Shown here piece by piece: positions 3,830 to 37,103 of a DNA stretch of 38,601 nt. Source of the stretch: Rhizaria sp. SCN 62-66 (taxonomy: Eukaryota). The DNA is taken from contig MEDY01000333.1 of the NCBI GenBank assembly GCA_001724265.1, positions 1 to 38,601 of the forward strand. Direction: 5' to 3'. The notes beneath the pieces were generated by a model. That model was not told where the DNA came from. It did no database searches and saw only the letters and a program-made list of their open reading frames with translations. Within the stretch, counting starts at the first letter, position 1. Every line of letters starts with the position of its first letter. Both the position numbers and the translations under genes were made by a program.

Positions 3830-4469
3830 AGAGTGAAACATCTTACGAGCGCTTCTGTTATTTTAAAACTTGTTTATTTACCACTTGGCGCCATAACAAA
3901 GCGTACGAGCAGGTCAGTGAAGTTATAAAGACACTCCACGACGCTTGCCCTGCGCTCTGACACCGCGCCAATCGCAACCCAACTTACTAAAGAAAGCGAA
4001 AGAAAGAAAAGATAGAGAAAACGACTGACAGACGAGACGAACAAAGTCGAACCTTGCTTCAATGTCATCGTCACATTTACATAGCAGCAGCCAAGAAAGA
4101 AGAAAAGCAAGCGCAGGCAAACAACAAACAACACGTAGCATCTTGTGTAAAGAAAAATAAACAAAAGAAAATCCGTATCACGTGCTGTTGTTATTGATGC
4201 GCCGACACACACTCCGCTCCCACTCAGCCGCTGCAGAACTGTGTTTTGCAACCAAGACTTGAGCAAAGACTGCCTTTGTCCAACAGCTATCGTTGTCGTC
4301 ATCACCAGTATCATATCATCATTTTGTTTTTGTTTTTGTTTTGTTATCATATGTTGTTCTTGTTATTATTCCACATCGATCCGAAGTCAGTAGGAATGCA
4401 TACTGACACGAAACTGACCTCATCCGCGTCCAGCGCCGACACTGCACAGCGGTGCACTGAGCGGTGCAC

Positions 4470-12050: not shown

Positions 12051-12142
12051 TTGAAGCTCAAATGATAGCGAAATCTCACATCAAAGTCGGCGCACGAATC
12101 CTTATCTAGTTTGTGGCTGGTTGGTGGCGGCCAAATCTGAGG

Positions 12143-12155: not shown

Positions 12156-12273
12156 CTTTTTGATCGTCGGTCGGTCGGCCAACGGTAGACATGACTGGTG
12201 GAGACGAGGAGCTTTCTTGAGAAAGCCTTTTGTGTGGCTGAAATTCGGTTAATAACAACCGCGTTGTACCACC

Positions 12274-15200: not shown

Positions 15201-17480
15201 GACTCGTCCTTCGACCTCCGCCCCGGAGACCAGCCCAGCCCCGGGCTGCTGGCCTCGGGCGTGCTCGCGACGCTGCAGCAGCAGCACCAGCAGCAGGGCG
15301 GCGGCGCGCCCGGCCCCGACGGCACCGCGGGCGCGCCGGGAGGGCTGGGCATGTACGGGCTCGGCGGCGGTCGCGGGGGCGTGCCCGCGGCGGGCAAGCC
15401 CAAGATCGTCACCACGGACCTCGACCCCATCACCGGTCTCCCGGTGGGCTATGACGCCGACGCTGACGCCGACGCCGACGGCGGTGCGCCTTTCCGGCCC
15501 GGGGGCGCCGGCGCGGGCGTCCCGGGCTTCAGCAGCTCGGCCAGCAGCATCGCCGTGGCGGGGATCAAGCCGCGGTTCATCTGCGCTGTGTGCGCGCGCT
15601 TGCTGGACCAGCCGCTCGTGACGCCCTGCTGCTACGGAAGCGCGTGCGCGGCCTGTCTCGCGGGCGCGCTCAACCGCACAGGATGCTGCCCTTGCTGCTC
15701 GCAGCCGCTGCAGCCCGGCACGGCCAAGGCGCACAGCGTGCTCGAGGGCGAGATGGCCGAGTGGCGCCGCGGGCTCAGCACCGACGACACCGCGCTCGCG
15801 GCGCTCAGGCTCACGGTCACGGAGATCGTTGCGCTCGCGCGGCAGAACCAGAGTCAACAGCAGCTGCAGATGCAGCAGCAGCAGCGCGGCGGCGGCGGCT
15901 ACAATAGCGGCTATCAGGGGAACAACTATAACAGTAACTACAACAACGCGAACCCACGCACCTATGGCAACAACCAGAACCAGGGCGGGTTCAACAGCCA
16001 GAGCAACCCCCGGTTCAACAACAACCCTGGCTACAACAACAACAGGTTCAACAACAACAACAACAACAACAACCCTGGCTTCAACAACAATAACAACAGG
16101 TTCCAGCAGCAGGGTGGCTACCAGCAGCGTTATAATAACAACAACACCTACGGCAATAACAACTACGATAGCAACGACGGGAACATCAACAATAACAACG
16201 ACGCCTCAGACTTTGTTGCCTCTGTGCCTTCTGCCGACGACGTTTACAACGGCGCCAACACGGACTCGAGCTCGAGCTCTGGCGCTGGCGCTGGAGCTAG
16301 CGCTGGCACTGATGGTTCTGTCCCGGCAATTGCGGCTGCTGGCGCTGATGTCAGCCGCAGCGGCAGCAGCGGCACCGACGGGGCCCCCGCCCCTGCCGAT
16401 GCCGACAACAGCTACAGCGGCGGCGGCAACTATGACGGTGGCAACTACGACGGTGACTCCGACTCCGGTGCCGCGCCCGGCTCTGGCGCCGGTCCCAGTG
16501 ACCACGTGGGGGGCCCCGGCGCCCACGGTTACCCCGCCGGTCCCGGTGGCGCCCCTGCCCCTGCCCACGGTCACGGGCCTGCTCAAGGTCAGTTCGGCGG
16601 CCCTCCGCAGCAGTTCCAGCACCGGAGCGAGCTCAAGTGTTTCCACTGCGGCGGCTCGGGCCACATCGCGCGCTTTTGCTTCCAGAACCCGCAGAACCCA
16701 AACAACAAGCTGCACTTGATGAACCGCGGCGGCGGCGTCGGCGGCATCGGCGGTGGCGGCGTCGGCGGTGGCGGCTACAACAACTACAACAACCAACAAC
16801 AGCCGCCTCATCAGCATCAGCATCAGCAGCAACAGCAACAGCAACAGACAGGGCCTGGTCCGCAGCAACAGCAGCAGCCGTATCAGCAGCAGGGACCTGG
16901 TCCGCAGCAAGGCGGTGCTTACGGTAGTAACACCAACTACAACAATCGCGGCCCTAACAACAGCTACAACAACTACCCTCAGGGCGGCTACAACAATAAC
17001 CAGGGCCCACGCAACTACAACAACCCGCCTCCGCAGCAGCCGGGGCAGGGTCCGCGGCAGGGACAGGGTGGTTTCAGCAACAACTATAACAACAACTACA
17101 ACAACCGCCCTCCTCAGCAGCAGCCTTACAACAACAACTACAACGATCAGGGCCCTCGCCAGCCGTATCATAACAACAACAGCAACCGCGGACCCCCGCC
17201 TGGTGCCCACGGTCCCCAGGGCCAAGGCCCTGCACACAGCCACCAAGGGCCGGCCCACGGGCCGGCCCACGGTCACTCCGCCCACGGTCACCACCACGAC
17301 GACTCGCGCTACGTCTCGGAGCGCTACAGCGGCGGCGGCAATGTCGGTCCTCCGCGCGACCGTGGCGACCGTGACCGCGACTACGCCTCCAGCAGCAGTT
17401 TGGGCGGCAACGAGGGGCCTCGCAGGACGATCGTGACGAACCGCGGCGGCAACTTCAGCGGTCCTGGCAACGCCAACTAA
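12274..17480 (+). CDS. RBBP6: RBBP6/Mpe1-like cleavage-polyadenylation factor: DWNN, zinc knuckle, RING, N/Q/G-rich tail with a second knuckle (exons 12274-12318, 12470-12623, 12766-12868, 14470-14648, 14830-14957, 15135-17480)
   Basis: DWNN: IQYRFS..LTVLDMKRAI..YTKDEMVIERNSRIIVKRIP. Knuckle YRCKRCMLPGHWLKNCPTNGD. RING CAVC..TPCC..CAAC..CPCC. Second knuckle CFHCGGSGHIARFC. Five phase-consistent introns, 984 aa, TAA stop. Confidence 0.88.
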
Positions 17481-18228
17481 GCCGCTGGTGGACAGCTGGC
17501 CAGCAACGAGGGCGCTGACACGCCAGTCGCAGTCCAAGTCGGCGAAGATTGGACGAGATATGGCGCAGATAGAGTCGCATCTAAAGCGATTCCGACTTAA
17601 ATAATAATATATTTTGTATGTAGCTCTATATTTTATGGCGAATATTTACGTAGAAGACCGATAAGGGTGTCAAATCGCAACAAATACATATTCTGTACTC
17701 ACTAAGTTCAAACATTTTTTCGGAACCACCGGCCAGGGGAAAGAAAGCCGCATGTTGGTAACGGCTCACAAGCGAGTGCGAAGTTTGCCGGTCAGTCGCA
17801 GATATCTTAGTCGTATAGGGATTTAATTGGAAGGTCGTAATATCGACTATGTGGGTTATTTATTCCTTGCTTTCTCTGCGCGATTCACGGACACCAGCGT
17901 GTGATAGAGCCTACTTTTTGCTCCCTATGAGGGGACTGCCCTGCTCCACTTTGAAACGGACTCTTATACCCTCCAGTGTTCTATAGCTGTACAGAAATGC
18001 CATATATTGGTGTTTTATATGTATCAATATCTCTGACCTCGCCTTCTATGAGCTTCTTCGGTTGCTGCTGCTCTTGATTTGCCTGCTTCTATGAGCGCGA
18101 GCCTCACTCTCCTCATTCAAACCCACTTCGCTCACCGCTTCCATCTTGCTCCTCTTGTGACTCGCCCTTAATTCCCTTCGCCCTCTCCGTGCTTCGCCCG
18201 TGTTCTAGGCTGCCCGTCCTGCCCTCCG

Positions 18229-21200
18229 ATGAGTGACGCAGGCGACGACGAGCAGTACAACGCCGCGGCCGCGGCGGCGGGGAGCCGTCCTGGCTCTGCC
18301 TCTGTCCAGAGGAGCCAAGCCGGCAGCAACTCCAACGCCGACAACGCCGCGGCCAACGACGACGCCGGCTTCGACGCTGAAGACAACGACGACAACAACG
18401 CCGACGCCGCTGCCGCCCCCGCGGCTGACTCGGAGTTCGACGCTGAGCCTGAGGCTGCCAACGACGCTGCTGATGTGGAACAGGAGGAGGCTCCTGCCGC
18501 AGCCGGCGGCGAGGCCGTCGTGCCTGAGCCCGGCTTCGACGCCGAGGACGACGACGACGCCGCCGTCGCTGCGGACGACCACGACGATGACGATGGCGCC
18601 GCCGCTGCCGAATCCGCTGCCCCCGCTGACAACAACAACGACGACGAAGGCTTCGACGCTGAAGATGACGACAACGATCACGCTGCCGCCGCTGCGGGCA
18701 GCAAGCCCGGCTCCGCCGCTGGCTCGCGCCCCCGCACCGCCGCCTCGCAGGCCGCGTCCCGCCCCGGCACCAGCAACAAGGCCTCCCACGCCGACGCCGG
18801 CGGTGACGGTGACCATGAGCCCGCGCAGGAGGAAGAGGAGGAAGACGACGGCATTGACCCCGCGGCGTCGCGCTCGATCCAGGACCCGAACTACGTGCCC
18901 GTGGCGTTCAACGACGACGAGGACGACCTGATGCTCTTCGGAATCCCCGCGCTGCCCGAGGACACGCTGGACCAGCTGCAGCACGTGACGCGCGAGGTCG
19001 CTGCGGCCGAGCTGCCCGACCGCCTCGCGCAGCTGCGCATGGAGCTCGAGGACCAGACGATCATGGTCGGCACGGTCTCGCTCGACGACGTGAAGCTTGA
19101 GGAGGCGTCGCTGGAGAAGGACCGCATCGCGAGCGTGCAGGCCGACCTCGCGCGGCACCAGAAGCGTGAGCAGGACCTCCTCGCGCGCGAGCTCGACGCG
19201 CGCAAGCGGCTTAACGCCGAGCGCCAGACGTCAGTGCTGGAAGACCGCGAGGAGGCGATGGCTGTGATCGCGCGCTCGATGATCTCGACGCGCGAGCAGC
19301 AGACGGCGTTCCGCAAGGCCGAGGAGCGGCTCAAGGCCGTACTGCGCGACGAGCAAGCCACCGTTGACGTAGAGTTCGGCAACCTGGGCGAGGACACGAG
19401 CGGCGTCAAGGGCCGCCGCTACGCCGTCAACTGGGACAACGCGCCGCGCCTCGTGTGCGTCAAGAACATGGTGCTGCGCGCCGTCAAGAACAAGCTTCTC
19501 CCGGGCCGCTATGTGATGCTCGTGACGCTGTTCGACCGGCTGGGCGGCGTGCCGCTCAAGTGGTCCAAGCTCAAGGACTTCAACTACTTCCACCGCACGC
19601 GCAACCCGGTGCGGCACAACGGCCGCTTTCACGACATCGAGATCAGCTTCAAGCAGCGCATCAACAAGGTGTTCCTCGCGTGCCCGAGCAAGAACGACAC
19701 GACGCCGTCGATGTGTTTCGTGTTTGAGCTCTTCCAGATCCGCAACTCTGGCCTCAGCAAGACCGACAAGGTTGTCGCTTGGGGCGCGTTTCCGCTTGCG
19801 GACCCCACATTTGACGTCATCAAGGGCTACTTCAAGGTGCCGCTGCTGCGCGGCGAAATGGACCCGTCGATCGACCGGTACGAGGAACTGGAGCACCGCA
19901 TGGCGTCCAACGTCGACAACTGGCTGTGCAACCTCTACTTCACTGTGGAACACTGGCCGCGGTACATGAACGGCCGCCGCGAGTACGACGTCGAGCTCAA
20001 GTTCACGCACGACCTCTTGCGTCTGCCCGAGCACACCGCGGCGGGCCCGACCAAGATGGCGCTGCTGGGCGACGACGACGACGAGCTGCTCGACGACGAC
20101 GACGAGGCCTCGGGAGGCTGGAAGGGCCTCTGGGGCAACACGCAGGCCGGCGCCGCCGCCAACGCCGCGCTCCACGGCCCCGCCAACCGCGGTAACAACG
20201 CCGCCGCGGCCGATAACGGCATCGACAGCATCATCCGCGGCCTCAACAGCAACGGCAGCGGCGGCAACTCGGCCACTGAGTCCCTCCGCAGCCCCTACGG
20301 CGGCGCTGGCAGCGACGGCAGCGGCGGCGCGGGCTCCGGCGCCGTCTTCGGCGGCGTCGGCGCGGGCGACCCGGGCAAGAACCGCAACTTCGACGTCATG
20401 ATGTCGCTCGACAAGCTCCGCGCCCCCGAAGACGACGCCGCCAGCCCGACCAACGGCGCTGGCGCGGGCAACGCGGCGGACAAGGACGGCGCCGTGAGCA
20501 CGCTGCTGGGCGATGATGGCATGGTCAAGGGCCGCACGGCGGACGAGTTCCTCGCGAAGCTCTCCAAGTCGGTCAAGCCCGCCGTGCACTCGGTCAAGAC
20601 GCGCCGCCGTGCAGCGCCCATGGACATCTTCCAGGTACGTCCTCGCATCGGCTATCACTAAATTGCCTATTTGACAGCATGTATCGCACCATTAAAGACT
20701 CAACTCTATTATGTCACCGTCACTTTTATATCAATGCTCACGTACACCTTGCTTTTTGTACTCTCTTTGCTTAAAAAACTCCCCAGGACTTGGACGCCGA
20801 GGAGGAGGCCGAGGCGGACCTGATGAAGAAGAAGCGCGACGAGGAGCGGCTGGCCGAGACGCGCCGACAGACGCGCCTGCTGCAGAAGTACCGCTACTCG
20901 ATCGCGGACCCGCACACAGACGTGCAGACGGACCCCATGGCGGAGAAGCTGCGCTACCTGCGCGGCGAGCTTAAGGCTGACGTGGGCTGCCACCGTTTCG
21001 GCTCGTTCGAGTTCTGGTCGTTCGCGCTCATCTTCTTCATGATGCTGTGGCTGCGCATCTACACGCATTACTTGGCGCAGTACCTCTTCGTCGAGGGCAA
21101 CGACGTCGTCGTTACATCGTTCGACATCAAGGCCTACATGTGCATCACGCGCTACAACGAGGCAACCGCAGACCTGGCCGTGCAGATAGGCGCCTCCATC

Positions 21201-22175
21201 ATAGGCACAGTCGCCAACGCGGCCATTTTCCTCATTCTGATGCTCTTCGCGTGGATGGTGCAGCTCGGCACGCGCGTGTTCCCAGACACCTTCTCGCGCA
21301 TCCTGCTCTCGTGGGGCATCGTCACGATGCTCGACCCGCTGCTCATCCTGCTCGTCGACCTCTGCTCAGAGAACTGGGCCCACGGCGACGCATTCAAGCT
21401 CTACCACTACTACCTACGCACCGAGGGCAACGGTGTGCCGGGCGTGCTGCTCACCATCGCCATCTTCCTCTTCGCCATGGTCGTCTGCATGTTCTTGCTC
21501 TACCAATACCTGCTCTTCCTGCACGCCAACGGCCGCATCCTCGACCTCTACTCGCGTATCCACGGCGACGACGGGAACTTTTTCATCCCGCAGGACTTCG
21601 AGCTGTCGCTGCGCACGCTGCGGTGGATCATCACCAAGGAGCGCCGCTCCGCCACGGGCGCGCTGCACACCAAGAGCAAGATCTCGGTCACGTCCTACAC
21701 CGTGCGCGACCACCTGGACCCCACCTTCAAGGCGACGACGATGCACCTGGCCATCTTCAAGCAGCCCTTCAACGGCGAGGAGCAGCTCTACCGGCACTTC
21801 GTGCGCCAGCCCGACGGCGCGATCCTCGAGGTCTTCGACAACGTCGAGGCCGTCGGTATGGACGAGTACAAGAAGCTCGAGGAGCGCTTCGCGCAGAAGA
21901 ACGCAGGCGACGCGGGCGCGGAGCACAGTGCCAGCCACCCGGGCGGCGTAGTGCGCCGCGGCGGCCAGAACGGCGCCGGCACGCCGCTCCACGCGCCCAG
22001 CGCCGCGGGCGGAAGTAATCCTTTCGGCGAGGCCAACAAGGGCAAGTTCGGCTCCGCGGCGAGCCAGATGAAGAACAACGCGACGCAGCTGGGCAACGAG
22101 ATGCAGAACGGCGGCAACGTCGGCGCGAGCGGCCGTGGCGGCAGGCTCCAGTCCCTCTCCGAGCAGGGCTATTGA
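18229..22175 (+). CDS. OFCC1/ojoplano-like protein: acidic N-terminus, coiled coil, conserved core, about four C-terminal TM helices (exons 18229-20634, 20787-22175)
   Basis: Core LRAVKNKLLPGRYVMLVTLFDRLGG..FVFELF..DKVVAWGAFP..KVPLLRGEMD..WLCNLYF resembles OFCC1 homologues as I recall them. Hydrophobic helices lie in exon 2. Phase-0 GTACGT..CAG intron; TGA stop. The CDS is solid, the family name less so. Confidence 0.7.
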
Positions 22176-22795
22176 GCGCGCGGATGCAGTGCAGTTGTGT
22201 CGTACTCGTGTGATGTAACACGTGCTGTGCTGCTGGACTGGTGAACAAGTGAGTGATCTTTCTTGTTTGACATGACTTCTTTAGTTTAGTTTCGTTTAGT
22301 TTAGTGTTGTTCCGATTTTGTGCTGTGTGTAGTGTGCTTCCCCACTGCCAGGGTCAGTGAGGCCAATAATAAGGCTGGCCTCGCTTGTTTTGCTTTGATT
22401 TTGTTTTGTTTTCTTCTCTGTGTTTTGAGTCGCAGCTCAGCCCATATGCATGGTGTGTTCTGCTTTGTTGCAGTTGCCGCCGTGATGCTGTTATGTTGTG
22501 GCTGCTACGCAGTTTAACCTGACCTGGCTGGCAGGCTGATAACCTTCGCTTCAGTTTCATTTAAAAAAAATCATAGATACATAATAATCTTAAACCACTT
22601 GACCTAGTATATTTCCGAACAATTGCGACCACCTAGATGGCTTAATGGCAGTTACTGGTAAGTCTCTCCTCGTCAGAGGTTCGTAAAAATATCGCCGACG
22701 AATCGCTTTTGGGACTGGCACCACGCTGGGTCATCGGAGTTAAGTCGTGGTTGATCTGTTTCGCTTTTTCTTAGGAAAAACCTTCGTTGAAACCC

Positions 22796-23259
22796 ATGTC
22801 TGTCAACCTCATCTCTTCTGCCGACGTACGTAGATCACTCCCACAATTGCACACATCCATCAACGAACATTACTCTCCTCAAATGCATCTTGATCTCGCG
22901 CCGAGTCCTGAACCACTTTGCATCTCACGCCGCCTCCTCCGTCGTTGCTGTTCGTCGCTTTGCCCCTTCCACAGGACTTCAAGACCGCTACCGCGGACAA
23001 GTCCCTTTCCGTCGTTGACTTCTACGCGACTTGGTGCGGCCCCTGCAAGGCTGTCGCGCCCAAGCTCGCCGCGCTCGCCGCCGAGACCACTTCCGTTAAG
23101 TTCTACAAGATGGACGTCGACGAGGTCGAGGACGTCGCCGAGGCCGAGGGCGTCAACGCGCTCCCCACCTTCAAGCTCTACAAGGACGGCAAGTGCGTCG
23201 CCACCTCGCAGGGTGCCAACATTGAGGCCATCAAGGCCAACATTGCCAAGTTCGCGTAA
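22796..23259 (+). CDS. Thioredoxin, 104 aa (exons 22796-22825, 22975-23259)
   Basis: VVDFYATWCGPCK and ALPTF motifs; GTACGT..CAG intron; TAA stop. Confidence 0.93.
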
Positions 23260-23936
23260 ATTTCCTCACAACGATGTGCCACTGCCTTGCTCCGTTATGA
23301 TAGCGTAAACCCTCACTCTTGGAATGCAACACGTGATAATCCAATACAAAGATACATATTTTACTCAGTCATATATCCTTATGCTCTTCTGTGATGATCT
23401 CTATGACTTTATTTGCATTTTACTCCGTGCATAATCTTGTGGTGATGGTTTGAATCTGACACGAAATTCATGCGTTTGTCTTCACACCCATGTCATATCT
23501 TGCATATTATTAGCCTTGACTCAGGAGAATTATGTTGATTACTCTAAACTACTTAGTATTTTGTCATATCAAATGAGTATGTGTGCATAATGCGATCGCT
23601 TTCATTTGGCGCAGTTTCCTCCTTGTGAACCCCGCGCATTGCGCCGACCATAAAGCGATGAGTATCGTTATCACTTGTGCATTGACAATTGAAGCTAGTG
23701 TAAATAAACTCTGTTTTATGTATTAGGGCCTTTTTATCGCGCAAACAGCGCATATAAACGACATATGCGCCGATCTCTTATGTCACCACAGACGCATATT
23801 TCAAACGGCAGTTACTTGCGACGCGTTGTTTGGTGCAAATAATATACTTTCTGACAGAATCGCATGGTTATGACGTAGATTGTGTTATTTTCTTTGAAGT
23901 TAGTGAGTGGCTCTTGTTAGAGTACTAAGTCTCAAT

Positions 23937-25499
23937 TCATTTCTTGATGGTGATAGGAACAAACTCATCCTCCTCCTCCTCTTCCTCTTCGTTGTCATCA
24001 TCGTCGTCGTCATCATCGTCGACAACCTGCAGCTTCCTACCAGCACCAGCACCAGCGCCAGCGCCAGCGCTCGCACTGGGCGCTGCCTTCGCGCTCGCCG
24101 CAGCCGCCCTCGTGTTCGGGTTCGCACTGTTCGTGTTTGTGTTACTGTGGCTGTCAGTGCGGCGAACCACAACGACCTCGTCGTCGTCGTCATCATCATC
24201 ATTGTTGTCGTCGTTGTCGGCGTCGCTCTCGGTCTCGCTGGCCTCCTCGATCGTGACGCCGCCGATGTTCACGGGCGCGCTGTTCTTCGGCTTCGTCTTA
24301 CGCGGCTTAGCTTCCTTCACAATCACGGCCGGCTTAACTTCCTTCACAGGCGCCGCAGCAGCACTCGCGCTCTCATCATCATCGTCGTCGCCGTCATCAT
24401 CGCCCCTCTTGTCTTTCTTGCCCCTGCTGGCCTCATCCTCGACCACGGGCGGCATCACCGTCCCGACGAAGGCCTCGACAGCCGCGGCAGACAGCGGAAG
24501 CCTCGGAACCCAACCGCCCGCCGCGGCGGCGCCCTGTTGGCCCGCGGCCAGCTCCTTGCGGTACTGGTCCGTGCCGAAGCTGTCGCTCTCGTCCCAAGCC
24601 GCCACCGCGGCCGCCAGCTTCGACTCGAGCCGCTTCACGTCAGCCGCGGTCGCCGCAGCATTCGCAGTCGCACTCACCGTAGCGCTCACAATGGCGCTCG
24701 CAGCCGCGCTCGCAGTCGCGCCTGCGTTAGTACCGGCGGCAGACTGGGACGGGGACTGGGACTCGGGGTTGTTCAGGCTGTCGTTGGTGAGCGCAAGCGC
24801 GACGTGGTAGGCCGCCACGGCGTCCCTGTGCTGCTTCATGCCGGCCCGCGCGGCGGCGAGCCGCTCCCAGCCGCGCGGCCACTGCGGCTCGGTCCGCACG
24901 GCCGCCGCGGCGTCGCGCTCGGCGCGGCCCCACAGGCTCAGCCGCAGCAGCGCGGCCGCGCGGTTCGCCCAGAGCTCGGCGCGCGGGCGCGGTGGCGGCG
25001 CCAGGGCCAGCGCGGCGGTGTAATGGGCCAGAGCACGCTGGTACTCGCCGCAGCGGAAGCTGTCGTTGCCGAGCGACTTGGCGCGCTGCGACGCCGCGTG
25101 CTTCCCGCTCGTACTGCTGACAGTTTTGTCAGTCGCCGCGGCGGAGCTCGCGCTGCTGTCTTTGCTAAGCGACGAGTCAAGCGCCTTGATCTCCTTGGTC
25201 CAGGAGAAGAGGTCGTCGAGCGCGGCCGCGACCTCGCGGCTCGACGCGGCGCCCGGCAGCGCGCGGCCCGCGCGGTCGGGGTCCAGCTCGGCGAGCTTCG
25301 CGAGCGCGGCGCGGTGCAGATCGGGGTAGCTCGTCGCCTCGGGCTCGAGCAGGCGCACGGCGTGGCGCATCTTGCGCGCGTCGGTGCAGCTCGCCACCCA
25401 GTCGAAGTCGAGCTCGTGCAACGCCACGTCGGCGTACTGCTTCGAAACTGTGGGCAGCGCGGAGGTGGGGTCCTCCAGCATCGAGGCAAACGAGTCCAT
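23937..25499 (-). CDS. SPAG1-like TPR co-chaperone (dynein-arm assembly factor family), short form with an acidic tail
   Basis: N-terminal LHELDFDWVASCTD..LL....YPDL..LAELDP resembles the SPAG1 N-terminal motif. One TPR clamp: KSLGNDSFRCGEYQRALAHYT..NRAAALLRL..AERDA. TGA stop. Confidence 0.7.
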   Translation of the reverse strand: MDSFASMLEDPTSALPTVSKQYADVALHELDFDWVASCTDARKMRHAVRLLEPEATSYPDLHRAALAKLAELDPDRAGRALPGAASSREVAAALDDLFSWTKEIKALDSSLSKDSSASSAAATDKTVSSTSGKHAASQRAKSLGNDSFRCGEYQRALAHYTAALALAPPPRPRAELWANRAAALLRLSLWGRAERDAAAAVRTEPQWPRGWERLAAARAGMKQHRDAVAAYHVALALTNDSLNNPESQSPSQSAAGTNAGATASAAASAIVSATVSATANAAATAADVKRLESKLAAAVAAWDESDSFGTDQYRKELAAGQQGAAAAGGWVPRLPLSAAAVEAFVGTVMPPVVEDEASRGKKDKRGDDDGDDDDDESASAAAAPVKEVKPAVIVKEAKPRKTKPKNSAPVNIGGVTIEEASETESDADNDDNNDDDDDDDEVVVVRRTDSHSNTNTNSANPNTRAAAASAKAAPSASAGAGAGAGAGRKLQVVDDDDDDDDDNEEEEEEEDEFVPITIKK

Positions 25500-26143
25500 C
25501 GGGGTGAGAGCGGGGTGGGCGGGGGGGAAGAGTGGGCTTGTGTGGGGCGTGAAGCGACGTGAGGTTCGGGAAGGAAAGAGAAAACCTGCAACAAAACAAT
25601 AAAGATAAGGGTTTGGGAAGATTTTGTGAAGATATAGTCGGTTATGTAATATTTTTCATTCGATAATCCGTGATATGACTTGTCAGACTCAAGGTGTGAT
25701 GAGATATACATGGATAAAGAGAGATTGTGGGAGCCGTTATCGCGAAGCGACAGTTCAAACAACGTCGAGGTAGAACACGAAACAGACAACCTATCTAAGA
25801 TGAATAATTAGGGGATCAATATCTAAATGCTCACGTTAATATTAAAATTCACTGTTAACGCTATGTTTGACGATCATGTGCGGTAGCATTTGAAATCTCC
25901 CAAGTACCTCTCGACCAATCTCTGGTCTCGACCGGACTGACTGTGAGCATCATGGTGTAAGCGCGACTGAGAAATCAAGATCTAACAGGCATTGAAGCAA
26001 TAATAAAGATATAATCATATACCCTGCAAGCTATATATACGTGTATTACTCGTGTTTTGTTATTGGTAAGTATGATTATAGACTGGAAAATCGTATGTTT
26101 TGTCGTACGCCATGTTCAAGTTACGCATTCCACACAGTCAATG

Positions 26144-29100
26144 TTACCTGCGCACACCGTTCAGAGCGAGTGGGAATTGCATCAGCCACCCAGTCACAAT
26201 ATCCCCAACGCCCCTTGCCTTATCAGCCTTGATCCGGTCAAGACTCGCCGTAACCTTGCTCGCAAACACCTCAAGGAGCTCGGCGCTCTCACGCTTGCTG
26301 CAACCGACACCGACGCAGTTGCTGTCATCGGCATCGCCAGCTTCATCACGGTCCCGCGTCGGCTGCACATTAGCGCTACGCGCCTTGACTTCCGCCATAA
26401 CGTGCGCCACGCGCGCCACGGCGGCCAACGCCGCCTGTGCGAGTGCGAACACAGTCTCCAGCTGCTACTCCTGCAACGCGCGCTCCAGCTGCCTTTGCGC
26501 ACGCATCTTAAACAACGCCTGCGCCTGCCGCTGCGGTGCGCTCTGTGCAACAACGCCTGCGTTAGCGTGACCGCGGCGGCGCGCGGACATCGGCGCTGTC
26601 TCGGCGACTGATGCAGTGACGGCGGCTGCCTCCGCAGCGGTCGCGCGCGCAGCCACCGTGGCGACTGAGACTGCGGTGTCTGTCAGTCGGGTGACCGTGA
26701 GCGCAACGGCGGCGGCGAGGGCGTCAGGCGCGCACACGAAGCCGCCAACTACGCCGGTGTTGAAAGGCGCGGCTCCGTTCTTGTTGATGTCGCTGTGATT
26801 GTTGATACCGCTGTGACTACGGATATCGCTGTGGCCGCGGCTATCGCTGCTTGGGATGTCAGGGGTCGCGGCAGCAATTGCGGCCGACGTGTTTAAGTCG
26901 AAATAGCCACTTGCGTTGACTTCAATGCTGAAACTGCTGCGGATAGACTTTAGACTATGAAGAGACGTGCAAGCGTTGTTGTTGTGATAAAACAGCGCGA
27001 CTGCAGCTAGCCCGGTCTTGATCATATCAGTGACTGTAACTGCGGGTGACAGTTGCGGCGCGGAAGCAACTGAGAACACATTTTGTCCACAAGCAACCTC
27101 CGGACTATACACAGACACCGTGGTGCAAGGAGCCGTAAGCAGCCCCTTTACCTGCTGACTCAGCAGCTCGAACACGCGTTGACTGTGTGCAGCCACAGAC
27201 TGCGAGCACGAGCTACTCCTTGAGTGGCTTGACTGCTGCGTGAAGATTGGGTCAAAGGGCTGCTTGCCGCCAGTAACTGAGAGCAAGGATTGTACTATGT
27301 CACTTGACACAGCGCTAATAGCGGTCATACATGTGCTAACACCATGATCGCGTTGCTGTTTGGGCTGTTGCTGTTGCTCGGGGCGTTGCTGTAAAAGAGC
27401 AAGACATAAGTCAAGTAACGATGGGACTGTACTGTCGCTTTGGGCGCTAACGTGGCCGCCAACACATGCATGAACAATGCGCACAGCCTCCGTTGTAGAC
27501 GTTCTTTCCAGTGTGCAGCTCTTGTTCTGAGTGATCGGGATAGTGTCGCCAGCGGTGAGAGAAACAGAGGATAGAGCCCAGAGCGGCAGAGCGAGTAGCT
27601 TTGATTTCGCGTTTGCAGCAGCAACTGCGGCAGCAGCAGTCGACGCCACGGCGTGAATATCTACTGTGCTTGTGTTAACATTGTTGGTGAGGTTATTGAA
27701 GTGCTTGTCGTTATAGGCCGTTACCGTCTTCGTTCTTGTTACGTTGCGTGGGTCAGTATCAACCACAACAATGCGAGGAGTTTGGGCTACATGGGCGTTT
27801 GCTGCTATCTGTACTCCTGCTGTCAACGCCGTCAGTGTTGCTGGGACAGTAAACCTGTGTGCTTGAAAAAGTGACTGCGAAAGCAACGCGCGAAGAAGAA
27901 TCACTGTGCCCAGCACACAGCTCTCAGAATAAGCTGATTGTAATCCCTTTTGCATTGCTAGCGTAGCATTTGCTTTTTCCGATAGCAGAATGCATGAGCG
28001 CGCAAGAGTGGCTGTAAGCACGTGTGGGAGCGCTAACAGAGACCAGGATAAGGCTGGTTTGACCTCCATAACGACACTGACTGCGCGGCCAGGGACAGCA
28101 GAAGCACTTTTATTATCATTAGCATTGCTGCCAGAAGAGCTAGTACTGTTGCTCCCACTGCTAATGCCGTTGATAAAACGGTTATGACCGGGTAAGTGCC
28201 TATTCTGCTGCTGCTGTGCGCCGTGCTTTTGTTGTTGATGCTGCTGCTTTTGTCGTAGCTGTTGCTTCTTGAGCACAACAGAAACCTTTGCGTTGAGCGT
28301 CATCTCTTGCTTAAGCAGCAATGCCAGTACTGAAGCTGCAAGGCTAGCATCGCCAAAATTAGGTTGCGGCTCAACGTGCGACGACAATCGCCTCAGCTGA
28401 ATCTTCTGAAACAGAGCAGTAGCTGTTGGCACGGCTGCTGGTACTGTCCCAGTTGCAGCAGCAGCGGCTGCTGCTGTCATAACAACGCTAATGCAAATAC
28501 ACTGCAAGCATGAGCACGCCGCAACACCGCGCGTGCTACTGCTAAAGCTGGAGCTGTTGTTTGCACTCAAGTGGCTATTTATATGAGCATGCACACTGGT
28601 GGTGGTGTTCTTGCTCTCTTCGTTAGTGTCGGTACTATCGGCAAATACTGCGTGTGCGCACACGTCCTTGCTCACTGTCACTCCGCTAAAAGGCTGATTG
28701 CCCCTTAAGCAGCCCTTGTAGTTGACTGCAGCAGGGAACTTGCACCCGATGCACTTACACTCATCAGACGCACTGAGATTGGCGTTGGCGTGCGCAACTG
28801 CAACTGTGCCTGCAGTAACAGCAGCACTCAACGCGCTTACTGCCAATATTAGTGGCGCTGTTAATGGGCTTAATGCAGCTGAGTTTGTGCCAACACGGCC
28901 AAAACTAGGTCGCAAGTTTTGCTGCGGATGTGAAGGAAAAGTCTTGATGAGTTTAAGGCGAAACTGAAGATACTCGACGTCATGAGCAGCTAAGCTAGCC
29001 CTAACACCACACACAGCACAAGTGCATCTGCGGTCCCCTTCAGCGCGGCCGCTGGCGTCGTTGACCTTTACACTCACGCTTGCACTCACGCTCACACGCA

Positions 29101-32100
29101 TGCTTGCGCTCATCTTCCTCTTCGACGCATCTTCAGCCTTTCCAGCATCTTCTCGCTTGGTGGCATTTATAGCGTTTGTATTGCTGCCGCTGCTCGTGTC
29201 AAACTCGTGCAAGAACACAGTTGCGTTAAGCCTTGCCTCGCGCGCCGCAACAACAACGGCGTCGGCCACCACCGCGGCTGCGGCAGCGGCCTCCCGCGCG
29301 CGTCGCTCAGTCTCCCTCAGTCGCGCTGCCTCCGCCGTTGCCGCGCGCGGCGACAGCGGGGACTGCGGCAGTGACTGCGCTAGAGGCGGCAACGGCGGCG
29401 CTGCGGCAACGGTGGCCAGCGCCGGCAGCAGCACTTGCAGCAGGCACAGAAGGCCACGGCGGTGCGCAGATGTCAAGCCGCACATGGTCGAAGTCGAACA
29501 GTGCATCGCAGTTAAAGTATTGGTGTTCATGTCTTGTTTGCGACGCTCCGCGTCATGTTGTTGCGCTTTAATCTGGCGATGTTCAAGCTGCTTCGAGAGC
29601 AGCAAAAGATCGAGAAGAGTTCCGCGTCCAAGAGCAATCAGAGCGCGGGGTGGCAGCGACTGGGCAAGCGTTGTTAGAGTGTCAATATCTGTGAGCTCGT
29701 CAATGTTAGTCTCACTTAACGCAATATCGGTCGCAGCATCGTAAGCTCCGTTTGTTGCAAGTTTGACAATATCAAGCAAGAGCGTCTTTGACGACGCATC
29801 TGTAGCAGCAGCAACGGCTTTGTCAGCAACGGTTGCGGCAACAGCAGCTTGGGCCATGGCAAGCTTAGCAGCAGTTGCGGCAGCTGTTGCAGCGTTGTTG
29901 CTATTTACGCCCGCATCATAAGGGCCCCCGCAAGGGCTTGTGTTTTTACCGAGATCAATACCGCTGCTTAAACTGTCTCCGTTAAAGCCGTTGTTGGTAT
30001 TGCCACCAATACTGGTGCGCGTCACAGTCTTTGCGACCGCAACGCGACTGTAAGCAGTCGCCATGCGCTGCAGTGTTGCGGACGTGCCCAGTCCTGCAAC
30101 AAACGCGGGGCTGAAAAAGTCAACCACAGGGAACGCGACAACGTTGCTCATGTTCTTGGTATTGTGAAGCAACTTAGCGTCACAAATCGTTGCGAAGCAC
30201 GTATTGCCGCCATCGTTTGCAAGGGCACCGCCACCATTGTCGCTCTTTCCAGCAGCATTGTTATCTGCAATGGCAACAATGCTGCGCCGCATGCTGTGCA
30301 GTACAGCGCTATAGTCCTCGGCCTTGGCCTCGGCGGCGGCCTTGTTGGCGTGCAACACTAGCCCCGACTGCAGCAGCCACGAGTGGCCGAACAGCGACCC
30401 GCCGTGCCCATTGCGGGTCGCTGCCAGAGCCTCGGCCGCCGCGCAAGCTTCAGCAGCCAACGAAACCCGCTTGGATAACAGTGCACTCGCAATTGACACT
30501 GGTTTGGATGCGTTGACCTCTGTATCTACTGCCGCTGCCCCCAATGCTGTTGCAACTGGTGGAGTTACTTGCGTAGCTATTGCAGTCTCCGTTGCCGTGA
30601 CCGTAACAGACCGCGCAGTCGTTGCTCCAGACCATGCTGCAGCTAGGACCAAGCGCGCAGACGACGGCGCAAGCACAGCAGAACGCTGCCGTGACGCACC
30701 CGCTGCATTTGTCAAAGCGGTGATTGTGAGTGCGTCAGCGGTTTGTCTTGCTGCGTGCGGGGTCATGTAGCTGCGTGTGATAGCAGCTGTGTTATCGGCA
30801 TGTGAAGGACTCTGAAGCGTGGCACTCGTGTCACTGATGTTGCTGTTGCTGCTGTTGATCGCGAGTCCGTCGCCAGTGACGTGCGGCGGTGCTGTCGTTG
30901 CAGTGTTGTCAGTGTCGCCATGGCCGCTCCTGTCGCTCGCACTTATCGCCGTAAACACAACGCCTGTTGCCGTTCCAGTTGTTTCCACCGCAGCATCAAC
31001 AGCGATGTCAGGGTGAACAGCAGTGCGCGTAAAGTTTGCGCTGTTGTAACTGCTATTGTTGCTGGCTTTGTTGTTCTTATGCTTCAACCTGCTGTGGCGA
31101 CTCGAAGTGCTAGTGAGACTGTTCTGGCTCGACTTGTTGTTGTGAGGGTTAAGGTAAGTATTGTCCATATCAATGACAAGGTCGCCGGCGTGACTCTTCT
31201 TGGTAGTTGCAGCGTTACTGTTAGCTTTGCTAGTGTTATTTGTACTGGCGTTGTACAAATACGTAAACGCACTCGACATGTCGCTGCTCATACTTGAACA
31301 GCCATCATCGTAGTCGTTTTTATCACTTTGGCTGCCGTCAATATCTTTTCGCTCATTGCTGCCGGCAAAGTGGCCGTACGCGTTGTCGCTGTCACGCACG
31401 CGGCTGCGACTGTTCCCGACAACGCTCGTGCTGTGCACATGGGTGTTAGCATTGCCAGTGATGCAACTCTTGTTGTCGTTGTTCTCCACACCGCTCATAT
31501 TTGTAAAGCCCCTCAGGCCTATCTGTGCCGCAAACGCAGCCTCCTCCCGCGCCAGCGCCGTGCTCGCCCCCACAGCCTTGAGTGCAATCGGAGCTGCAGC
31601 AGCTTCCGCCGCAACCTTTGCAGTGTTTTCTGCTGCCATGTCCGCCTCGCCCGCCGCTGCAGCAGGCAGTGCGTCCAGCTCTGCCTGCGCCTTGACATGT
31701 CGCGCCGTCATAATCTGCAGCATCTCGTTGTACACGCCCCTGCAGTCAAAGCGGCGCTGCTTCTCGTTCTGCGCCGTCGCCGTACCCTGCTCCGCTGGCG
31801 GCGGTGCGCGCTCTTGCGCGAGCCACGGGTGCCGCAGCAGCTCCTCCGCAGTGGCGCGCGTGCGCGGATCGCGGTCCAGACAGCGCCGCATAAAGCTCTT
31901 GGCGATGGCGATCTCGCGCGCCTCCCACGGGTACTGCTTGGCGAGCAGGTACCGCGGGTAGCGGATGCGCGTAGTCTGCACGTTGAGGCGCGCGTCGATC
32001 ATGCTCGCGCCCAGGAACGCCGGCGACCCATAGATGAACTCGTACGCGATACAGCCAAGCGCCCACACGTCGTACCCCGGCTGCGGCGGCAGGTTAAACA

Positions 32101-35100
32101 TGAAGGCCTCGGGGCTCATGTAGATTGGCGTCCCCTTTGGCAGGTACGTGTCGTCGACGTTTGGGTGGAATTGGCGCGGCTTGACTTTGTAGCGCGGCGC
32201 AGCGGGCACGTTCAGGTTGTCTTCTTCGCAATAATCAAACTTTTCGAGCCTCCTTCGGACAGCAGCACTATGCCAGTCAATCGTTGCGTGAGCAGCGCTA
32301 TTCGCACTATCTGTGCCGTTGCTTGCGCCAAGCGTAAGTGACGCTGCCGCCGACGCTGCTTCTGCAGCCGCTGCAGCTGCTGCAGTGGCCTTGGCCGGCG
32401 ATGTGAGCGTTTTGTGATACGCCTCCGTCGCCGCCCGCATCACAGACCCGGCGTCGCCACCGTACTGCGGCAAGAAGTAGTTGTTGTAGTCGAACGCCAT
32501 GCCGAAGTCGCACAGCTTCACCACTAGCGACGGCGGCTCCCACGCGACGGCCGCCGCTACTGCGCGCGCCGCATCATCAGCCTCAGCGGCCGCGATCGCG
32601 GCAGCAGCGGCAAGCGTCTCCGCTTTCGTGGCAGCTGCGGCAGCAGCGGCAGCAGCGGCATCATTTTTCTTGCTTGAAACAATGGGCTGGTTTTTTACAC
32701 CATCTGCTACGACGGTGTTCCGGCTCCAGTCTTGCTTTTGTTGAAGCATCTTCTGCTGTTGTTGCTCGTCATTCTCTTGCTTGTGCTGATATTGCGCAGA
32801 GACAAATGACTTGGTCGCGTGCGTAATCATCTCGTCTGTGACAAACGCTAAGCCGCTGCCGGGCATCAGTCCGCCGCTGCGCCTGCTTCTCGGTGTAAGA
32901 CCGTCCCGCCGCAAGCGGCGAGCAGTAAGAGCAGCTGCAACAGCCGACACAACAGAGCCTGGAGCTGCGGCGCTCATGTTGTTGGTTGCATCATTGGCAG
33001 CAGCGACGTTGGCCTCAGCTACGTTGGCCTCAATAGCTGCTTCTGCAGCCGCGTACGCCGCCGACTTTGCTGCAGCAATTGCGGCGGTGGCCACTTCTCC
33101 GAACGCATTCAGCAGAGACGCCTGGAACCGCTTGCGCGAGGGTAAGCCGAGCACAGTGGCTAGCGACGGCGGGCTGTATGTGGGAGGGCTCTGGTGGCGG
33201 CCAGCGTACGTGGCACGCCTTGCGTACGGATTGCCGCTCTTGTGCGAGTTCGAAATAGAGTTGGCGTTGCCGCTGTTGCCATTGTCGCTGTCACTGGCGC
33301 TTTCGCTATTGCTAGAGGCGTCACAATTATTGTTAGCGTTGCTCTTATTGCTGCCAATAGTGCTCTTGATTATGCTGTGGAAATCCGCACACTTAGCGCA
33401 GCACTTGTAGTCGCAACAGCCTGCGTCTTGATGACCGCCATTGCCAAGATTATGGTTGTGGCATTGGCTGCAGCCTTCGCTGGCGCTGTGCTGTTGCCAC
33501 TGCAGCTCATACTCAGTCGCCTTCTGCAGCTGCTGTGCGCGCCGCTGCTGCGTGGCGCTCGGACCGCGCGCGCCTAAACTCTGGCCGCCCACCTCGCCAC
33601 TGCGGCTGTGACCACTGCGCGCCGCCGCGTCAACGTGCCGCCGGTTAATAGGGCTCTCCCAGCACAGCAGCGCGTTTGCCGGCTTGAGATCGCGGTGCAC
33701 GACGCCGCGCGAGTGCAGGTAAGCAACGCCCGCAGTCATCTGCTGCATGATCACGCGCACCACCTGCACCGGGTAGCGCGCGCCGCCGCTGCGCGACACC
33801 GGGTCGGGCACCACAGACGCGCGCGGGCGCGACTGTCGCTGCTGTTGCTGCTGCTGTTGCTGCTATGCAGAGGCGCCAATGTCGTGTTGCTGCGGCCGGG
33901 AACTCCGCGAATAAGACTGGGTCTGTGGCTGTAGGCTTTGTTCTTGATTGAAGTCACTAATCGCTCCCGATTGTTGACTTGAAGATCCCTTTGTGACTGC
34001 GTTGTCATCAATATCTGAGCCAACATGAGTGCGCTGCCGCGCCTGGGCCTTTGCCTTGACCCGAGCCCTCTTTGTCTTGGCTTTGGCCTTCGCGTTGGCA
34101 CGTCTTTGGGCTCGAGACGCAGAGTGGCTGCGAGCAACACTGTGACCAGCGTCATCACCGGTACCAGCAACCGTGCTTGCGCTGACACTGTCCGTCCTTT
34201 CACCCGCGTTTGTGTAGCCGTCAGCTTTGCTGCGCACGGGAGCAGCGGCGTGGCTGCTGACGCGGCAGACCGCGGCCGCAAACGCCGCGGGCGCGTCGCG
34301 GCTGTCAGTGATGATGTCGAGGTTGTTCGCGACGGGCACGTACCCAGAGCCTGACAAGCGCAGGCGGCCGCGGCGACAGAGACGGCGGCGCTGACGCTGC
34401 TGCTGGCGCTGCGCGCGCTCAGCGTCTGCAAGCCCTGTGTCTGTGCTGGTGCTCACGCCTGAGTCAGTTTCGCTGTCACAGCCGCTTTCTGTGTCGCTAC
34501 AGGCGTCGGTGTAGATGCTGCTGCTGGTGTCAATGTCAGAGCCAGTGCACAAGCTGCTGTCAAAGTCTGAATCTGAGTCAGAGTCCGCGTCGGGGTGAGA
34601 GTCCGCTTCAGAGTCGGAGTCGGAGCTGGAGCCGAAATCTGAAAAGTAGCCAGGGCCTTCAATGTTAGAGCCGTTACTCTTAGCGGTAGCAGCAATCTCG
34701 TCTTCGAGCTAAGCCAGTGACTCGCGTGAAAACACTTGAGACTCGCCCAGCTTGCCGAATCGCGACTCTGATGGCGCCAAACGCGATACATGCGCGACAC
34801 GGGGGTGTGAGTAACGCTGCTGCTGTTGCTGCTGCTGATGCTGCTGTTGTTGCAGCTGCCATTGGCCGAGCTTCTCCCAGCTCGGACGCTGCGGCTGCAG
34901 CCCCGGCTGCAACGGCTGTTGCTGCAGCTGCTGTTGCTGCTGCGACTGCGCTTGGACAGAGTCCCCGTATATCGACTGCGCCAGCTCGGAGTCCCTGAAC
35001 ATCGACAGGGACGGCGCCCCAGTCAGCGAGCCATCGTGTGTCATCCTACACTGCGACTGCAGCTGTACTTGGGACTGCGTTTGAAGCCGCGGCTGTGACG

Positions 35101-36346
35101 GCAGCAGCGTCTGCGATTGCATGGAGTCCCCGTACATCGACATCATGTCACTGTTATCGGCGCCGCCGCCTCCCCACAGGCGCTGCCCGACCTCCTCTGT
35201 CTGCTCCGGCCCCAGTTGCTGTGTTTGCCGGCCTTGCTGCGAGCAAAGCTGCGACGGGAACTGTGACCGCGACTGTAATTGCTCATGCATGCGACGTAGC
35301 GAGTGTGTCTCAAATGGTCTTGCGCCAACGAGAGAAACCTCGGGTGTAGCAGCACCAACGCCAACTACTACCGGTGGTGCCGGGATCGGGTCAGTCTGCT
35401 GCTGCTCATGGCGGGAGGTGAGACTGTTTCTGTGAACGTAGCTGCAAATGGAGTGGTGTTGCACGCAACCCAACATCTCGTTCTGAGTCCACTTCAAGTG
35501 CTCTTTCGATCCGCCATCAGAGTCCAAGTGCCCGTCAGTGCCTGGCTGCTGCGGCGACTCCTCGTCGGCCAAGTACCACTCCTCGTAGTCGAGTTCGTCC
35601 GGAGGCAGCAGCGAGCGCCCGGGCACATACGTCTGCGTACCACCTAAATGCTCGGTTAACCGCTTGTTGTTGTCACGCCGCCACTGCGCCCGAGATTCAG
35701 GACTGTGTGAGCTCTCTAAGTGTGCCTGGCTGTTGAAAGCGGCGCTCCACGCGCCACGTGCGCTGTGCAGTCCCAGCTCGGCGGCGCGCCACCGCGCCTG
35801 CTCACGCGCCGCGCGCTGCGCAACCTGCAGCAGCACGGCGAGGCAGTCCAGCTCGCCGACGGCACACTCCATGACGATCGCGACGCGCGTCTCCGTCTCG
35901 AACACGCCCAGGATTGGGGTCACGTTGCGGTGGCTCAGACGGCGCAGCACAGAGAACTCAGAGAACGGCGGGTCGTCCTGCGCGCGGCCTGTAAACGGCG
36001 CGCGCGTGTGCGCGGGGCGGGAGGACTTGGTGAGGAACTTGATGGCTACAGTCGCACCTGTGGACCGTTGGTACGCCTGCGATGCAGCATGAGCGAATCG
36101 ACCAAAATCACAAGAGGCATAACAAGTCAAATAGGCGTGAATGAGTCCACAAACAAGAAATGATGTGTTTTCAAATTGTTAAATTTCGAATCTAGTTTTG
36201 ATCTCAACTCGATTTCCCTGTGTCACTGTGTACATTTCTTTAATGTGTTGTGAAGCCAAGCAATGTACCTTGTAGACGGCGCCAAACGATCCTTGTCCAA
36301 CGGCAACAAGGAGGTCAAAATCGGCCACCTCAAGATCTGTAGACAT
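26144..36346 (-). CDS. Giant Fused/STK36(ULK)-like Ser/Thr kinase, ~3336 aa, with three in-frame TAG codons (exons 36346-36269, 36076-26144)
   Basis: Kinase subdomains in order: VGQGSFGAVYK, TVAIKF, EFSVLRRLSHRN, MECAVGEL, YLHSRGVVHRDLKPAN, VKLCDFG, KGTPIYMSPE, DVWALGCIAYE, R...EELLRHPW. ORFs 34709-36130, 33863-34552, 26465-33814 and 26144-26452 share one frame, separated only by TAG; the final stop is TAA. Confidence 0.85.
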
Positions 36347-37103
36347 CTTACTGGGCTGTTAAAAGGCTTTTTGGTTGCAGTGACGTCCAGCGACTGGCGC
36401 TGCTAATGGTGAGAATGTGATATCTGCTCTTTGACAGAGTTGAGATGATAGTGTGGCCAGATACCAACGTCGGTGTACAGCTCTGTTTAATCGTTGAAAT
36501 ACGAATAACAAAATGCGAAAAAACACGATGTCGTAAGATTATTGTGATCTTTGAATGACATCTTGCTTTACCAAGAATTTCGGGCGGTACACAGGCGGGA
36601 AGGTCATTTTAATGCAGGAGCAAATTGCTCTGGGGATGAAACACCTTGCGTCAGGATATCTGCACTAAAATCAGTTTCTTAGGTTGTAAAAACAATGTCT
36701 CGGAAATTTTAAGACTTGATCTATTAAATTCTTTTGAATATTTTTCCTTTGACGATGAGACAACGTCTATTGAACCTCGTCATTACTTCGTTGACGATGC
36801 GACTGTTTGTGCATGAAACCGCCCTATCACAAAGATCGCAAAGGTGACAGCAAATTGGTAAAGAAGCCCAACGATTTCAGGCGATATTTATTTCGATCGC
36901 CCGAAATCTAAACGCAAAGTCAACAATTTAAATAGTGAATTCGGAATTCAAAATTCGTCCACGAGAAATTTGATTCATCTCCTAAAAGCATTCAACAGAT
37001 ATCCTTTTGTATTTGCACTTAAAAAATTGCACAAAAAATGGCCATATCTTTCTCATATCTTTTTTATACAATGAAACCAACGCATACAAGGTCGATAAAC
37101 AAC

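Follow-up and report, generated by a model that had tools for sequence, protein, structure and literature searches.

In-frame UAG codons in two genes of a wastewater eukaryote contig: a candidate reassignment of UAG to glutamine

The contig MEDY01000333.1 (38,601 nucleotides (nt), assembly GCA_001724265.1, deposited as Rhizaria sp. SCN 62-66; its whole length is hereafter called the window) raises the question of whether its source organism translates the codon UAG. A protein kinase gene on the minus strand and a gene related to the methyltransferase N6AMT1/HemK2 on the plus strand contain, between them, four in-frame TAG triplets, and since these separate segments of each fold, both products are complete only if UAG is read through. 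An initial annotation, made from the sequence alone, had proposed that UAG is read as sense, probably as glutamine (Gln), with UAA and UGA retained as terminators. The analysis presented here favors the same answer as the probable one, as it is the best fit to an intact exon of 3,311 codons. The case is nevertheless weaker than was claimed, consisting of four codons and ten terminators, with the identity of the amino acid derived from context.

Open frames interrupted by TAG

The features of the two genes are the following:

36269-36346, minus strand: kinase exon 1, 78 nt, with the ATG at 36346, MSTDLEVADFDLLVAVGQGSFGAVYK, encoding the Gly-rich loop GQGSFGAVYK
36077-36268, minus strand: kinase intron 1, 192 nt, GTACAT...GCAG, AT-rich
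26144-36076, minus strand: kinase exon 2, 9,933 nt, a single frame with its terminal TAA at 26144-26146
36035-36049, minus strand: kinase motif VAIKF
34709-34711, minus strand: in-frame TAG1, context SLA[TAG]LEDE, within the insert that separates the kinase N-lobe from the catalytic loop
33863-33865, minus strand: in-frame TAG2, context GASA[TAG]QQQQQQQQRQ, heading a CAG/CAA run, with the HRDLKPAN codons 166 nt downstream
33674-33697, minus strand: catalytic loop HRDLKPAN, recognized by motif, Pfam and PDB match
32495-32512, minus strand: kinase motif DFG
32102-32122, minus strand: kinase motif SPE
26465-26467, minus strand: in-frame TAG3, context LQE[TAG]QLE, with 106 coding-like codons remaining before the TAA
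7467-9899, plus strand: N6AMT1/HemK2-like open reading frame (ORF), stop to stop, with large inserts, a 356-residue tail, a TGA end and a guanine-plus-cytosine (GC) content of 0.37 beyond it
8400-8402, plus strand: in-frame TAG4, context ATGGC[TAG]PCDP, in an insert between N6AMT1 segments

Recounting of its length, coordinates and contexts reproduced the original description of kinase exon 2 as 9,933 nt of one frame broken by three TAGs only. Between 26144 and 36178 the kinase frame contains three TAG, no TGA and one TAA, which is the terminal codon, versus 23 TAA, 27 TAG and 53 TGA (103 stops) and 43, 35 and 95 (173 stops) in the other two minus-strand frames, where TAA and TGA alone amount to 76 and 138. 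Because the other frames carry 103 and 173 stops, the kinase frame is held open by selection and not by chance.

The encoded protein is a CAMK-like kinase domain split by very large low-complexity inserts, the first of which spans about 695 residues from the N-lobe to the catalytic loop and holds both TAG1 and TAG2. Upstream of TAG1, positions 16-87 of the Pfam Pkinase profile are matched; the matches downstream of TAG2 are to positions 106-135 (by PK_Tyr_Ser-Thr) and to 157-263. A search of the PDB recovered a collinear match to DAPK1, in which chain residues 32-106, 119-148 and 179-312 align to query residues 3-80, 776-805 and 1315-1456, with TAG1 (query residue 456) and TAG2 (residue 738) both between the first two matching stretches. 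The Pfam and DAPK1 alignments thus agree with the earlier placement of two of the TAGs between the N-lobe and the catalytic loop.

In searches of a protein database, the only match to kinase residues 1-800 was the kinase itself, while the last 1,200 residues matched the kinase itself and a 66-residue fragment (P0255). This fragment is 89% identical to query residues 1117-1179 and begins 23 residues past TAG3, being therefore silent on the residue at the TAG. The public protein for the kinase (P0001, 2,427 amino acids) begins after TAG2 and, when used as query, had no match among genome contigs or viral contigs.

The N6AMT1-like ORF aligns in five collinear stretches to human N6AMT1/HemK2, covering chain residues 1-201 of 203. 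TAG4 corresponds to query residue 301 and lies between the fourth stretch (query 241-288; chain 103-149) and the fifth (query 351-396; chain 158-201), that is, between matched segments of the fold, which it splits as had been proposed. Beyond the methyltransferase fold the frame continues on the plus strand with 356 coding-like residues (8829-9896) that have no Pfam match. N6AMT1/HemK2 methylates the glutamine of the GGQ motif of eRF1, and that this gene, of all genes, should carry a TAG is probably a coincidence.

Exonic status of the TAGs and rival explanations

Contigs from sequencing runs (X3, X4, X5 and X8) were compared with the window over positions 16501-36500, which span the three kinase TAGs. 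DNA contigs of X3, which belongs to another study code, cover 33488-35147 and 26320-27527 without a single differing letter. No alternative letter occurs at any kinase TAG in any run, X3 being the only one that demonstrably covers these sites. The agreement of the X3 contigs therefore rules out base-call or assembly error, a doubt that had accompanied the initial annotation, at the three kinase TAGs. The 10-kb kinase stretch is present in bioreactor, wastewater and activated-sludge metagenome runs under at least three study codes.

The sequence on both sides of the TAGs has coding character. Local GC at the TAGs is 0.51-0.71 and remains 0.53-0.75 over the 100 nt past each of them; past six of the nine tabulated TAA or TGA ends, including the kinase TAA (0.36), it is 0.30-0.42. 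Codon usage scores highest in the gene's own frame both before and after every TAG, with no stops in that frame, and past TAG3 it stays open for 106 codons where the other two frames have 3 and 10 stops. Neither a frameshift nor a TAA or TGA occurs over the 3,311 codons of the kinase exon and the 810 of the N6AMT1-like ORF. One variant contig of X3 carries changes at 26291 and 26312, downstream of TAG3, both synonymous in frame. Together with the P0255 fragment, these two letters provide weak coding support past TAG3, the fragment being of unknown origin. Variant letters in the kinase total six, three of them synonymous, too few for a proper measure of constraint.

One alternative is that the TAGs are removed or changed before translation, by splicing of short or non-canonical introns or by U-to-C editing. 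The introns modelled elsewhere in the window bear on this:

36077-36268, minus strand: kinase intron 1, with the GTACAT donor, as listed above
22826-22974, plus strand: intron of the second thioredoxin gene, with a GT..AG joint in both RNA libraries
20635-20786: intron within the gene at 18172-22175
donors at 12020 and 11238, minus strand: introns 1 and 2 of the double-thioredoxin gene
near 10545, minus strand: intron 3 of the double-thioredoxin gene, of which the donor alone is fixed
about 6177-6482, minus strand: intron of the V-ATPase A gene

All seven begin with GTACGT, GTACGC or GTACAT (the latter two once each), an unusual uniformity of 5' splice sites. Both ends are fixed for six, which span 149-306 nt; three were measured for GC (0.41-0.53, below the exons), and they have stops in every frame. 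Each in-frame TAG is formally usable as a YAG acceptor, and the only GTACGT inside the kinase ORF, at 34343, falls between TAG1 and TAG2. However, an intron from 34343 to 33863 would measure 481 nt (3n+1), be GC-rich and lack any other in-frame stop, as would every candidate, quite unlike the modelled introns. A donor scan found no donor of the GTACGT, GTACGC or GTACAT type ahead of the four in-frame TAGs. Also, the high local GC and the frame-0 coding score maintained on both sides are not those of an intron and, judged by the other frames, an excised piece free of in-frame stops would be very unlikely. Removal or editing of the TAGs before translation is accordingly regarded as very improbable.

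The RNA libraries confirm splicing in the window. In both X5 and X8, and in neither DNA run, position 22825 is joined to 22975 across a GT..AG intron. On the kinase, RNA-library contigs cover 28157-28457, 29363-29748, 31834-32118 and 32049-32369; among the contigs listed none spans a TAG, and the RNA depth of X8 is zero for the bin 25839-26505, both of which are evidence neither way. The poly(A) RNA of X8 also includes a contig (20383-20788) that is unspliced across the 152-nt intron at 20635-20786, although the same library splices 22826-22974, indicating either intron retention or DNA carry-over. Because of this unspliced contig, RNA cover of the kinase is no proof of a mature mRNA.

Ten ends of coding sequences were modelled in the window, as follows:

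691, 9897, 22173, 23937 and 37104: TGA ends
4470, 10281, 17478, 23257 and 26144: TAA ends

The V-ATPase A end is backed by alignment to the last residue of its relatives, and the other ends by ORF ends, splice models and the drop in GC. The earlier count of eleven ends (six TAA, five TGA) holds in that none is a TAG, while its total is here reduced to ten, five of each kind; the eleventh may have been the ORF of a V-ATPase fragment with a TAA at 3311. Two introns start with the donor GTACGTAG and so carry a TAG within the donor itself. One of these, intron 2 of the double-thioredoxin gene, accounts for the sole other TAG that ends a coding-like ORF:

11231-11233, minus strand: TAG within the donor GTACGTAG, not a codon; the gene continues to the TAA at 10281-10283

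This TAG was consequently rejected as a true terminator, and the TAA at 20659 was rejected as a gene end because it is intronic.

Several observations weigh against a sense UAG. The in-frame TAGs are just four in about 8,900 modelled codons, a very small sample, and all lie in low-complexity inserts, so that the earlier description of TAG as rare and restricted to non-conserved sites is borne out. None of the four occupies a conserved alignment position, and V-ATPase A, both thioredoxin genes, IST1 and the 1,283-codon gene at 18172-22175, which make up the conserved set of the window, are free of in-frame TAG. In these CAG-rich coding sequences 53-56% of one-step nonsense changes give TAG, and the probability of four TAGs out of four under plain nonsense mutation is 0.08-0.10. 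TAG makes up 20-30% of the terminators in standard-code genomes, shares at which none in ten, again a small sample, has a probability of 0.11-0.03. The window contains no tRNA gene, nor rRNA or any other Rfam family, and no eRF1 was seen in it. Finally, a frameshifting deletion of 52 nt affects V-ATPase A, which lies on the same contig:

4470-6552, minus strand: V-ATPase A gene, 52 nt missing and the frame shifted, with the deletion at 5560-5620

This lesion is defined relative to a downstream fragment at 3608-3868 (minus strand), which is identical over the flanking stretches of about 45 and about 100 nt. A direct repeat of 8 nt borders the gap, which takes away the counterpart of an 18-residue stretch of a 95%-identical relative (P0135). 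The fragment runs into a Hom_end-associated Hint domain (Pfam PF05203, E 1.5e-14) that is a remnant of a VMA-type intein, its first residue being Arg in place of the intein Cys, and the piece 3314-3481 matches the V-ATPase C-terminus with 64% identity. The tract of identity stops at the intein insertion site, as a co-conversion tract of homing would. Outside the deletion, 43 of the 566 sites aligned between the main copy and P0135 are different, with 20 versus 19 changes relative to outgroups and none at invariant sites. Since V-ATPase A is otherwise under normal constraint, the contig is not in general decay.

At least one disabling change is thus present on the contig, which keeps alive the explanation that the TAGs arose by CAG-to-TAG nonsense mutation under the standard code, the kinase and N6AMT1 copies being recently disabled alleles or pseudogenes, for example on a degenerate haplotype of a polyploid or asexual protist. 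The high share of TAG among one-step nonsense changes is what this predicts, as are the position of TAG2 at the head of a CAG/CAA run and the location of every TAG in a poorly conserved segment, in addition to the V-ATPase A deletion. However, decay would have to have spared 3,311 and 810 codons of repeat-rich, indel-prone sequence from any frameshift, TAA or TGA, while striking two of about 11 genes by TAG only. Nor does it account for the lack of TAG among the ten terminators, the recurrence of the kinase TAGs in a run of another study, the constraint on the remainder of V-ATPase A or the synonymous nature of both variant letters past TAG3. Recent nonsense mutation is therefore considered rather unlikely. 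A sense UAG is ranked above pseudogenes because of this absence of frameshifts, TAA and TGA from two genes that need their downstream parts.

A further explanation is that UAG is still a stop that is read through, either by a programmed or leaky mechanism or by a low-level suppressor tRNA, in an ambiguous code. A UAG-CAR context, of the viral UAG-CAR-YYA type, promotes readthrough; here each of the four TAGs has C as its next letter, and two have CAG as the next codon. The great rarity of in-frame TAG (four in about 8,900 codons) is also what a costly decoding would predict. Yet C follows 77 of the 137 CAG codons of the kinase, so that C after TAG equals the base rate and was rejected as a readthrough signal. 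Downstream RNA structure was rejected as well, the 100 nt from each TAG showing no unusual folding (z = 1.03, 0.46, -0.62 and 0.39). Moreover, three inefficient events in one ORF would presumably leave almost no full-length kinase, and not one of the ten gene ends is a TAG. Readthrough of a stop codon is judged clearly improbable.

If UAG is sense, its most plausible meaning is Gln. The kinase contains 3 TAG, 137 CAG and 69 CAA, so that UAG would represent about 1.4% of its Gln-type codons. A run of eight Gln begins immediately after TAG2. Runs of at least four account for 15% of the Gln residues in the two proteins and are flanked by 0.36% of other residues, from which the probability that at least one of four sites is so placed is 0.49 for Gln-like sites versus 0.014 for any other residue, a ratio of about 34. 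This pattern is no proof of a sense UAG, because a CAG-to-TAG nonsense change would give the same arrangement; the identity as Gln is an argument from context alone, to which the run would contribute only if UAG is translated. Assignment to another residue (Leu, Glu, Ser, Tyr, Lys or Trp) has in its favor that three of the four TAG contexts are uninformative on the residue, and that UAG to Leu and UAG to Ser are nuclear variants described in PMC11687900 and PMC5304391. Against it stand the Gln run with its likelihood ratio, and the fact that CAG, the commonest one-step neighbor (137 in the ORF), is converted to TAG by a single transition. A sense UAG with a meaning other than Gln thus appears highly unlikely.

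Neighboring genes and lineage

Other genes of the window were modelled as follows:

10281-12060, minus strand: two tandem thioredoxin domains with an Ala/Pro-rich tail and three introns
12242-17480, plus strand: RBBP6/Mpe1-like gene, with a DWNN-like exon near 12480-12600, a zinc knuckle and a RING-like Cys cluster
22646-23259, plus strand: single-domain thioredoxin gene

Very long tracts rich in Asn, Gln and Gly occur in the RBBP6/Mpe1-like gene, which extends over a stretch with a higher AT content and many introns. Among the transcripts in the RNA runs, that of the single-domain thioredoxin gene has the best cover, with a joint depth of 44.6 in X5. Over 19578-19962, nine positions distinguish contigs of X4 from the window; their spacing is always a multiple of three, and every change is synonymous in the frame of the 18172-22175 gene, which indicates that a close relative under purifying selection is present in the same kind of sample.

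The window is eukaryotic, with spliceosomal introns and a GC content of 0.48-0.65 per 2 kb (0.58 overall). Over the C-terminal 370 residues of V-ATPase A, metagenome and transcriptome collections yielded unnamed relatives at 95, 85, 83 and 75% identity (P0135-P0138). The EukProt entry UN00131 is 76% identical to the V-ATPase A of the window, and the best matches named to species reach about 65-66% (Chromera, Partenskyella). In a quick maximum-likelihood tree of this one gene (38 rows chosen from 240 matches), the window and the 95% relative form a pair (support 100) inside a clade of nine (support 99) made up of environmental sequences and one EukProt entry. All animal, fungal, plant, alveolate, oomycete and rhizarian rows fall in a separate clade of 22 (support 99). 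The lineage is thus left unplaced by the V-ATPase A sequences and, because the rows include no ciliate, fornicate, discoban or confirmed amoebozoan, the tree excludes neither a ciliate nor a fornicate affinity. The GC content, intron type and multi-gene contig would, however, be unlike ciliate macronuclear DNA.

Contig collections were also searched for further loci of this lineage. With IST1 as query there was no match among metagenome contigs. P0138 retrieved at least 593 V-ATPase loci from metagenome contigs, and among the 80 listed the top identity was 68%, with none from the clade of the window. P0135 matched only prokaryotic A/V-ATPases among genome contigs (56% identity or less) and nothing among viral contigs.

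Comparison with known codes

Few nuclear codes set UAG apart from UAA (PMC11687900 and PMC5304391), and those described are all mature, with UAG common and at conserved sites. Reassignment of UAG alone is reported with Gln as its meaning in Iotanema spirale, Protocruzia tuzeti, Hartmannula sinica and Trochilia petrani. The rhizarian exLh and some ciliate metagenome-assembled genomes from TARA read the codon as Leu, and Scotinosphaera reads it as Ser (PMC11687900, with PMC5304391 for part of them). The precedents named in the initial annotation (Iotanema for Gln, a sainouroid for Leu, and ciliates) are therefore valid but incomplete, as further cases of UAG to Gln and of UAG to Ser appear in PMC11687900. 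A search of the literature on UAG reassignment in activated sludge, or on translation table 15 in eukaryotes, found nothing naming this organism.

For the known cases, PMC5304391 proposes a tRNA with anticodon CUA combined with changes in eRF1, tRNA-Gln(CUA) reading UAG and not UAA. By analogy, UAG would here be read by a tRNA whose CUA anticodon is a single mutation from tRNA-Gln(CUG), accompanied by an eRF1 that recognizes this codon poorly. UAG would have been lost as a terminator and would be reappearing by CAG-to-TAG transitions at tolerant sites. The rarity of UAG fits a recent or still inefficient reassignment. We tentatively entertain, as a possibility short of an even chance, that the window derives from an unnamed, deep-branching lineage of wastewater reactors at an early stage of UAG codon capture, in which UAG means Gln, has gone as a terminator and is found only at tolerant sites in disordered inserts.

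If this were true, the organism would represent a natural intermediate of reassignment, with loss of the terminator first and reappearance through CAG-to-TAG change afterwards, a stage that is gone in the saturated cases. It would also offer a test bed for the co-evolution of tRNA(CUA) and eRF1. Gene callers that use the standard code cut the proteins of this organism, as exemplified by P0001. The recurrence of the organism in runs from at least three study codes means that a proper test has material to draw on.

As in programmed readthrough of the viral UAG-CAR-YYA kind, UAG is here followed by C, and by CAG in two cases; unlike it, two cellular genes are involved, one ORF bearing three of the four sites, far from its 3' end, and no structure was detected downstream. 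The ambiguous codes of Condylostoma, Parduczia, Blastocrithidia and Amoebophrya likewise translate a standard stop inside genes, but they use several or all stops as sense and also terminate at these codons according to context, whereas in the window TAG alone is involved and ends none of the sampled genes.

With exLh, the TARA ciliates and Scotinosphaera the window shares the uncoupling of UAG from UAA and the use of UAA and UGA as terminators, those counted in exLh being 56 UAA and 15 UGA and no other (PMC5304391 and PMC11687900). There, the Leu and Ser assignments rest on hundreds of conserved positions, and nothing in the window favors Leu or Ser. PMC5304391 reports 71 UAG codons at conserved positions in eight conserved exLh proteins and 96 in I. 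spirale blocks.

The closest likeness is to the codes in which UAG means Gln (of the type of NCBI table 15), with which the window has in common in-frame UAG codons that need to be read through, ends formed by UAA and UGA only, and one Gln context. In those codes UAG is frequent, found at conserved Gln and distributed like CAG and CAA, whereas here it is rare and located in low-complexity inserts; the window is also GC-rich (0.58) and intron-bearing, and its V-ATPase A stands apart from two alveolates in the tree. If real, the present case would work in the manner of the known UAG-only codes and be distinguished from them by its very low usage of UAG.

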